Program-made: the position numbers and the translations under genes
Origin: Escherichia phage W70
Strand: one strand, 5' to 3'
Length of the DNA: 64,000 nucleotides
Sequence record: OP778610
Shown: in pieces, positions 16,960 through 17,340 of the stretch
Layout: each line of letters opens with the position of its first letter
Position numbering within the stretch: the stretch's first letter is position 1
Notes under the pieces: generated by a model
Database searches by the model: none
What the model saw: only the letters and a program-made list of their open reading frames with translations
Told to the model about the DNA's origin: nothing

Positions 16960-17340
16960 AACATAATCCACAAAGAAAGAACTATTTTGCCCACAAAGAA
17001 AGGCAGTTTTAAAGAGATACCATTGCCAGAGTATGGAGGTGGCGCGACCGTAGGGAGCGACACTATAAAACGAGTATACCCCTCCTACCGCTATGCGGTC
17101 ATCGGTGATAACCGATATCGTTACACGCTATCTGTTCTCTTCGTTTCCTCGTTTTATAGTGTCTATATGTAGTAATCTTTTATTCTTTGTCAATACATTA
17201 TCGAAGATAATATTGAATTATTTAATGCTTTGTTATTCATATAAAGTGAATAGCTAGTCAATAGGAAGGCCGTTAGTGTGACCACACAAAGAGGCTATGC
17301 ACCACAAAGAGAGGCCGTACTTGCCCACAAAAGGAGCAAA
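16960..17340. repeat. dispersed CCACAAAGARAGG direct repeats (5 copies) in non-coding DNA
   Basis: copies near 16967, 16990, 17281, 17301, 17324; TAATCCACA at 16964-16972 is a DnaA-box-like 8/9 match. Confidence 0.55.
17059..17163. repeat. 16-bp perfect inverted repeat with ~73-bp spacer
   Basis: GACACTATAAAACGAG at 17059-17074 and its reverse complement CTCGTTTTATAGTGTC at 17148-17163; inner palindrome ATCGGTGATAACCGAT. Confidence 0.7.

Follow-up and report, generated by a model that had tools for sequence, protein, structure and literature searches.

The regeneration of terminal repeats from concatemers is known mainly from models of phages T7 and T3, whose concatemer junction has a direct terminal repeat of short length. 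Just to the left of that repeat are cis signals that do not code for protein, and an inverted repeat able to give a fold-back end. Chung, Nardone and Hinkle reportedly described, in 1990, a hairpin intermediate in T7 concatemer processing. A hairpin intermediate in the duplication of the T7 terminal repeat is also on record (PMC4281155). The inverted terminal repeat (ITR) of the parvovirus AAV has a long perfect stem that closes two small internal hairpins, with a protein site beside the stem. It combines an origin and a packaging signal at the DNA level. An element that in part resembles both is described here from Escherichia phage W70 (record OP778610), within a stretch of 64,000 nucleotides referred to below as the window.

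The window is that of an E. coli myophage of the genus Septuagintavirus, subfamily Vequintavirinae. It is ~99% identical to phage A73 over the aligning segments and is also close to A7-1, A5-4, LTH01 and UPEC06; for three of the close relatives the assignment to Septuagintavirus and Vequintavirinae is published (PMC11370258). A sequence-only reading of the window had picked out a perfect 16-bp inverted repeat enclosing a 73-bp core with a second palindrome inside it, and our analysis reproduced the coordinates and the letters of this repeat exactly, with 73 nt from arm to arm. The element and its parts are as follows.

17035-17058, + strand: leader GGAGGTGGCGCGACCGTAGGGAGC, abutting the left arm on its 5' side, ~98% invariant in the genus
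17059-17074, no strand assigned: left arm GACACTATAAAACGAG, invariant in the six Septuagintavirus genomes; other genera differ by compensated changes
17075-17086, + strand: C-rich junction TATACCCCTCCT, adjoining the left arm on the core side, unpaired in minimum-free-energy folds
17087-17099, no strand assigned: small hairpin ACCGC-TAT-GCGGT, found in every fold; A5-4 alters the loop only, from TAT to CCT
17101-17116, no strand assigned: inner palindrome ATCGGTGATAACCGAT, that is ATCGGT-GATA-ACCGAT, with a 6-bp stem and a GATA loop
17114-17132, no strand assigned: apical hairpin GATA-T-CGT/tac/ACG-C-TATC, the one place in the element that varies among genomes of the genus
17148-17163, no strand assigned: right arm CTCGTTTTATAGTGTC, the exact reverse complement of the left arm

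The 16-nt arms form the longest perfect inverted repeat of the 64-kb window at gaps of 20-300 nt, the runner-up having arms of 12 nt, and this length was attained in just one of 200 first-order Markov resamples of the window. The arm 16-mer is confined to this single locus, with no further occurrence in the 64 kb. Folding was well below that of shuffled sequence, both with RNA parameters (z = -3.5 for the + strand and -4.0 for the - strand) and with DNA parameters (z = -6.2 and -9.2, respectively). Exact scans of IMG/VR with the 16-mer arm or with the neighbouring 14-mer TTGCCAGAGTATGG returned chance matches only. The best argument against a chance origin is a comparative one, namely that the repeat is both conserved and compensated throughout the subfamily.

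The element recurs in Septuagintavirus, Certrevirus, Mydovirus, Seunavirus, Avunavirus, Henunavirus, Serratia phage Kashira and metagenome contigs. The genera compared share ~30% nucleotide similarity (PMC11370258), and the neighbouring proteins are genus-specific and were useless for locating the region in distant genera. A 30-nt cross-genus motif (window 17620-17652) served instead to locate it in four further lineages, represented by Mydovirus DP, Mydo, BIS47 and KPP-1, Seunavirus PVP-SE1 and GAP31, Avunavirus Av-05, and Henunavirus; the region of Kashira was located with the Mydovirus element as query. Every relative examined carries, at the same syntenic spot, an element with perfect arms of 16-27 bp around a core of 71-285 nt, and the site is in each case a large gap between converging + and - gene blocks, with one perfect inverted repeat per genome. 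Certrevirus phages (phiTE, CB7, CR3, CR8, CR9 and others) have exactly one perfect 18-19 bp repeat per genome, enclosing 71-105 nt; in Mydovirus, Seunavirus, Avunavirus, Henunavirus and Kashira the perfect repeat measures 17-21 bp and surrounds a core of 79-285 nt. Most elements of the latter group also contain nested perfect repeats of 11-16 bp. A pattern built on the leader retrieved 30 loci from IMG/VR and metagenomes, ~23 of them homologues and the remainder G+C-rich chance matches; the homologues contribute further versions of the arms, one of 27 bp, and every arm found was perfect.

At least 15 different arm versions are known, all fully Watson-Crick. The formal count was made on nine ungapped versions, three others being left out where MAFFT had shifted the register, and in the outer 16 bp of these nine distinct versions all 144 of 144 cells are standard pairs. 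Ten of the 16 arm pairs have changed on both sides and none of the 16 one-sidedly (to G-U/G-T), and sliding the partner arm by 1-3 columns lowers pairing to 27-52%. The changes extend into the core: RNAalifold gave 59 pairs for Certrevirus, 12 of which carry compensatory changes; these 12 are located in the closing stem, in a long irregular hairpin and in the apex of that hairpin, with covariation in helices P2/P3. Since the arms are perfect and compensated and the internal hairpins covary, base pairing is under selection. RNA folding with covariation analysis had been proposed as a check when the repeat was first noticed, and it came out in favour of structure on both counts, the fold lying below shuffles and the arms and internal hairpins covarying. 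The comparison of G-U with A-C pairs, by which the folding strand might be told, found no such pairs in the arms; the few in the Certrevirus alignment (A2) are misaligned columns. The core of the window could not be aligned directly to those of Certrevirus in either orientation (z <= 2), and the homology between the two rests on arms, leader, junction motif and synteny.

Two further observations concern single records. A second copy of the right arm is present in PVP-SE1 (1257-1271), in Av-05 (1281-1296) and in metagenome contigs L156 and L179; such extra copies could be either alternative folds, in which the left arm has two partners, or traces of duplication by template switching. The records of PBES 02 (KT353109), L152, L156, L166 and L172 start or stop inside the repeat or a few hundred bases away from it, which may reflect either assembler breaks or physical ends and fold-back molecules.

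Within the genus, the six-genome alignment shows where the element tolerates change. Identity to the window is 98% in the leader region (16965-17058), 100% in both arms (17059-17074 and 17148-17163) and 99-100% in most of the core, and falls to 80% in the apical hairpin segment (17112-17130), 88% in the spacer (17164-17262) and 77% in segment 17263-17388. The differences in the apical hairpin among Septuagintavirus phages are compensated changes and changes of loop size: it reads GATAACA/tac/TGTTATC in A5-4 and UPEC06, and GATATCAAC/gaaacagat/GTTGCTATC in LTH01. The inner palindrome, the second one claimed in the sequence-only reading, is present as described and folds in LTH01 and in the DNA centroid structure of the window, but it is invariant in the six close genomes and so is evidence neither for nor against pairing; it contests three bases (GAT, 17114-17116) with the covarying apical hairpin.

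The leader is found on one side only, which makes the element asymmetric. In Septuagintavirus, Mydovirus, Seunavirus and Avunavirus its consensus, GGTGGCGCGA(G/C)CGTAG(C/G)GAGC (GGTGGCGCGAsCGTAGsGAGC), immediately precedes the left arm on the 5' side; it is slightly diverged in Henunavirus and Kashira and more so in Certrevirus (GGGCGCGCCGGAGGCGC), and in several genera a portion of it is repeated within the core. The C-rich junction is homologous to TAACCCCTCCCCC in Av-05 and TAACCCCCAC in Kashira. Moving inward from the left arm, one first reads TAAC(T/C)C or TATACCCC in all genomes seen, and this uniformity of the first core bases indicates a single fixed orientation of the core. The outer half of the stem (GACAC-wATAA-mAC) is alike in sequence, and not only in pairing, across genera; together with the one-sided leader, this sequence conservation suggests recognition by a protein.

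The element lies in an ORF-poor, 1.2-kb non-coding gap (16790-17954) with + strand genes upstream and, beyond an HNH_3 endonuclease ORF, - strand genes downstream. The sequence-only reading mentions neither this gap, with the probable terminal repeat beside it, nor the leader, although these weigh most in understanding the repeat. Two ORFs overlie the repeat (16987-17172 and 17093-17257). Since neither has a Pfam match and both are disrupted by indels in relatives, the region is non-coding: the small ORFs are frame-broken by a core that is 2 nt shorter in A5-4 and UPEC06 (in LTH01 the core is 9 nt longer), and a protein-coding gene was rejected, as there is no conserved open reading frame. The other features of the gap are listed here.

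16968-17007, + strand: two CCACAAAGAAAG repeats, left of the element, iteron-like in look
17023-17036, + strand: first copy of the 14-mer TTGCCAGAGTATGG, overlapping the start of the leader
17164-17262, no strand assigned: A+T-rich spacer (78% A+T), containing TTGTCA (TTGACA on the - strand), a promoter-like hexamer
17281-17331: three copies related to CCACAAAGAAAG, right of the element
17389-17850, no strand assigned: probable direct terminal repeat of 462 bp, present as one collapsed copy in the W70 assembly
17441-17454: second copy of the 14-mer TTGCCAGAGTATGG, 52 nt inside the probable terminal repeat

The 14-mer has two exact copies in the 64 kb, against 0.35 expected when up to two mismatches are allowed, and both copies, which extend to ATTGCCAGAGTATGGnGGnG, are invariant in all six genomes. 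The right-hand repeats (17281-17331) are not conserved in A7-1 and A5-4, and other genera have different short repeats in this place, of which the Certrevirus repeat ATCTGCATAA is an example.

The terminal repeat of Septuagintavirus was deduced from the redundancy of one GenBank record and from homology: the UPEC06 record has an identical 462 bp at both of its ends, equal to window 17389-17850. Klebsiella phage DP, a Mydovirus, has identical 514-bp repeats annotated at both record ends. For KPP-1, a direct terminal repeat of 514 bp at 116,316-116,829 was established from coverage and PhageTerm and called T7-type (PMC9862379). The cross-genus motif at window 17620-17652 lies inside the repeats of both DP and KPP-1, and the left boundaries of the repeats in UPEC06 and DP look alike, with an ACA start followed by a CTCTC-rich tract. 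In a concatemer junction, the position of the element is therefore probably, to judge by these homologies, a short way to the left of the terminal repeat. As at the T7 junction, the inverted repeat lies within a few hundred bp left of the probable terminal repeat, the distance from the end of the right arm to the boundary being 225 nt in the window and 237 nt in DP. In Certrevirus, by our reading of the sequences by eye, the element and the counterpart of the repeat boundary lie ~195 to ~377 nt apart. CB7 and phiTE are reported to be circularly permuted, without fixed ends (PMC7344957); as they keep the element all the same, its general role cannot be confined to terminal-repeat duplication.

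Several side observations were made in this neighbourhood. The terminal-repeat region holds five AGTTGG repeats, two GGAGTCGCTCC repeats and the cross-genus conserved motif GTGCGTATAAGTTGTATTATGTTAAAT, and the equivalent stretch of Certrevirus has CATTCTCA repeats. A73 (OP778609) has an insertion of ~100 nt at ~2150-2250 (window ~17410-17456), made up of 47 unrelated nucleotides flanked by a 53-nt duplication of the start of the terminal-repeat region, exactly where its locus tags wrap (A73_1 / A73_264); the insertion resembles an artefact of the assembly end, located at the terminus of the genome. On the other side of the element, past the terminator of the last + gene, the 146-nt tract 16820-16965 has 8% G and 33% C with ATTAATC/TAATC repeats; such a tract might serve for Rho utilisation or as an array of binding sites for a protein.

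The ORFs at 14-20.5 kb encode small unknown proteins and one HNH_3 endonuclease. The latter (17955-18443, + strand) directly follows the probable terminal repeat, has its own strong promoter-like site (TGGACA-18-TATAAT, 17891-17920) and is absent from A73, A7-1, A5-4, LTH01 and UPEC06. A similar HNH gene occupies the same relative position in phiTE (phiTE_097) and CB7; the region upstream of the window's ORF is 72% identical to phiTE, and the ORF looks like a homing endonuclease targeting this site. Farther upstream, window ~11560-16360 shares patches of 84-87% identity with the jumbo phages 121Q, PBECO4, G17 and their relatives from E. coli and Salmonella, amounting to 7-9% of a 20-kb query; this similarity indicates gene exchange between unrelated phage groups.

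Several negative results bear on what kind of molecule folds here. The repeat had been called unlike the simple terminator hairpins elsewhere in the window, and this was borne out: it has a 73-nt loop, an A+T-rich stem and no U-tract (TATATGTAG follows the stem), and the sole hairpins that came out of the terminator scan are those at 16489-16504 and 16798-16815. It had also been proposed that the repeat could form a cruciform or a long RNA stem-loop. Selection for pairing upholds the general idea of a structure, but a cruciform in duplex DNA is unlikely: cruciform kinetics make extrusion from duplex DNA improbable with a spacer of 73-285 nt. The realistic form is a fold-back in single-stranded DNA or in RNA. 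Neither the window nor seven homologous loci matched any family at Rfam 15 gathering thresholds, and at E <= 10 there were three weak, unrelated matches elsewhere in 16400-18100. Taken together, promoters, terminators, G-U pairs and Rfam matches identify neither a transcript nor a strand. The pseudo-ToxI antitoxin mimic of phiTE was rejected as a counterpart, since it is located at 106.7 kb in that genome and the region studied here at 49 kb. The T7 class II pause motif ATCTGTT (17130-17136) recurs in one of eight other-genus elements, that of Henunavirus, and was treated as a coincidence. We know of no T7-type RNA polymerase in these phages. The element is undescribed in the papers on CB7, P7_Pc, phiTE, KPP-1 and Septuagintavirus and in wider literature searches, which also found nothing on transcriptomes or origins of Vequintavirinae.

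The reading to which we lean, somewhat short of an even chance, is that of a conserved fold-back (snap-back) element of single-stranded DNA belonging to the genome-end packaging or replication region. That DNA is the folding strand, that the structure forms in vivo and that it is put to use there are what we infer. According to this model, the region would become single-stranded through strand displacement or resection at a concatemer junction, or at a replication fork; the arms would then fold back on each other as a duplex of 16-21 bp with a small branched core at its tip, and phage proteins would use the hairpin and the adjacent leader as a landmark or a primer. The purpose might be to process and duplicate the nearby terminal repeat, or to start packaging or replication there; the model takes its analogy from the T7 hairpin intermediate. 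We favour DNA because wobble pairs are missing from the ~150 stem cells and from the nested repeats alike, because stem and leader are conserved in sequence, and because there is no consistent sigma-70 promoter, no 3' end signal or intrinsic terminator and no Rfam match. It is further favoured by the synteny that holds throughout the subfamily, by the extra one-arm copies in PVP-SE1, Av-05 and metagenome contigs, which resemble template switching at a DNA hairpin, by DNA folds far below shuffles, and by the packaging- or end-like setting, in which genus-specific short repeats, an A+T-rich spacer and a terminal repeat come together as they do in pac, cos and ori regions. An RNA stem wholly free of G-U/G-T would be unusual; recognition as duplex DNA would favour such a stem, as would copying of one arm from the other. 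Counter to a DNA element are the branched core with several covarying hairpins, which is the usual signature of a structured RNA, the variable distance between element and boundary in Certrevirus, and the weakness of the one inverted repeat seen to the left of the terminal repeat in T7 itself. In all genomes the core faces the same way, so that the flip-flop expected from rolling-hairpin replication is not seen.

The main rival is a small structured non-coding RNA, of which this locus would hold either the gene or a signal for processing. A transcript including the leader would fold into a long perfect stem around a core of two or three hairpins, and this core, perhaps excised by RNase III, would be a stable RNA that acts for example as a decoy or regulator during infection. 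We regard this as quite possible, if on the whole doubtful. The architecture of several helices with compensated changes in more than one of them is what one would expect of such an RNA; the one-sided leader and the fixed core orientation suit a strand-specific molecule, the folds fall below shuffles with RNA parameters as well (z = -3.5 to -4.0), a perfect duplex of 16-27 bp fits the substrate length of RNase III, and the element is kept in Certrevirus phages that are reported to lack fixed ends. The C-rich junction TATACCCCTCCT could pair with the leader segment GTATGGAGG, and a pseudoknot between G-rich leader and C-rich junction could, on a by-eye reading, form in four lineages. Promoter-like TTGACT/TTGTCA boxes stand upstream of the leader in Certrevirus and Mydovirus, but the -10 hexamers are poor and inconsistent and neither a U-tract nor another 3' end signal follows the stem. 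Zero G-U pairs in ~150 stem cells sits badly with RNA stems, which normally have some; no Rfam family matches, the two strands are indistinguishable, and the searchable literature yielded no expression data.

Returning to a DNA fold-back, a more specific version of it can be formulated, in which the element is a previously undescribed, subfamily-wide, telomere-like internal hairpin that primes or directs either the initiation of packaging or the duplication of the terminal repeat, its arms being kept perfect by periodic copying of one arm from the other. We consider this unlikely.

A part in the replication origin of the phage is less probable again. An initiator would bind to iterons, the hairpin would aid unwinding or priming and the A+T-rich spacer would melt. 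In favour of this are the five CCACAAAGA-type repeats that flank the element, the 78% A+T segment after it, the large conserved non-coding region and a change of sign in GC skew; the genus-specific short repeats would suit a co-evolving initiator. However, the skew switch coincides with the switch of coding strand and carries no independent information, the gene blocks converge, so that outgoing forks would meet transcription head-on on both sides, the right-hand repeats show no conservation in A7-1 and A5-4, and no initiator gene is adjacent. It is still more improbable that the arms are merely duplex-DNA sites for a dimeric protein (an operator or looping site) and that the hairpin never forms. 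The outer half of the arm is indeed conserved in sequence across genera, but the inner halves vary freely and stay complementary, the nested hairpins covary, and an arm length of 16-27 bp at a spacing of 71-285 nt is nothing that half-site recognition needs. A miniature transposable element, for which terminal inverted repeats around a ~100-bp unit might speak, or a functionless chance repeat is hardly credible, given a single copy in the window, the same syntenic place in every relative, the lack of a target-site duplication in the flanks (GAGC|...|TATA) and an arm length reached in one of 200 resamples.

If the preferred reading of a fold-back DNA element is right in its telomere-type form, these phages would provide a testable sequence handle on the regeneration of terminal repeats in large tailed phages with T7-type ends. 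Vequintavirinae offer a defined and conserved candidate cis element, a probable repeat boundary and natural compensatory variants, and targeted mutagenesis would be straightforward. If the element acts as RNA, it would represent a new conserved family of phage non-coding RNA in several genera under study for therapy and biocontrol directed at E. coli, Klebsiella, Salmonella, Cronobacter, Pectobacterium and Erwinia. In practical terms, the region marks where genome records of the subfamily should be opened and explains the spurious small ORFs annotated there.

The comparison with known systems can now be drawn more closely. Long-range pairing that flanks a structured RNA, with stems in the same range of length, is known from RNase III processing of rRNA precursors and T7 early mRNA; those sites belong to mapped transcripts and usually contain G-U pairs or internal loops, whereas the stems here are perfect. 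The inverted repeats of retron msr-msd likewise bracket a structured non-coding stretch of ~100-200 nt. Retron RNA families are included in Rfam, which gave no match here, and a retron was rejected, as Pfam found no reverse-transcriptase domain in six neighbouring ORFs. The P1 pac and lambda cosB sites resemble the region in having clusters of short motifs on both sides of a central site where packaging is initiated, but they lie in or next to the terminase genes and are without a long inverted repeat and structured core. The AAV repeat terminates a genome of single-stranded DNA and occurs in flip and flop forms; the W70 element is internal, ~225 nt plus the terminal repeat away from the end, in a double-stranded genome and in one orientation, and a parvovirus-like terminal hairpin was rejected, since the element is not at a physical end and the core orientation is constant. 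The inverted repeat of T7 is short and imperfect (12 nt, 83%), and the two phage families are unrelated, with no sequence similarity; here the stem closes a conserved branched core and is accompanied by a conserved leader, and members of Certrevirus are reported to be headful packagers, unlike T7 and T3. In probable function, judged by analogy, the element is most like the cis signals of a T7-type concatemer junction, and in shape it is most like the T-shaped hairpin of the parvoviruses.
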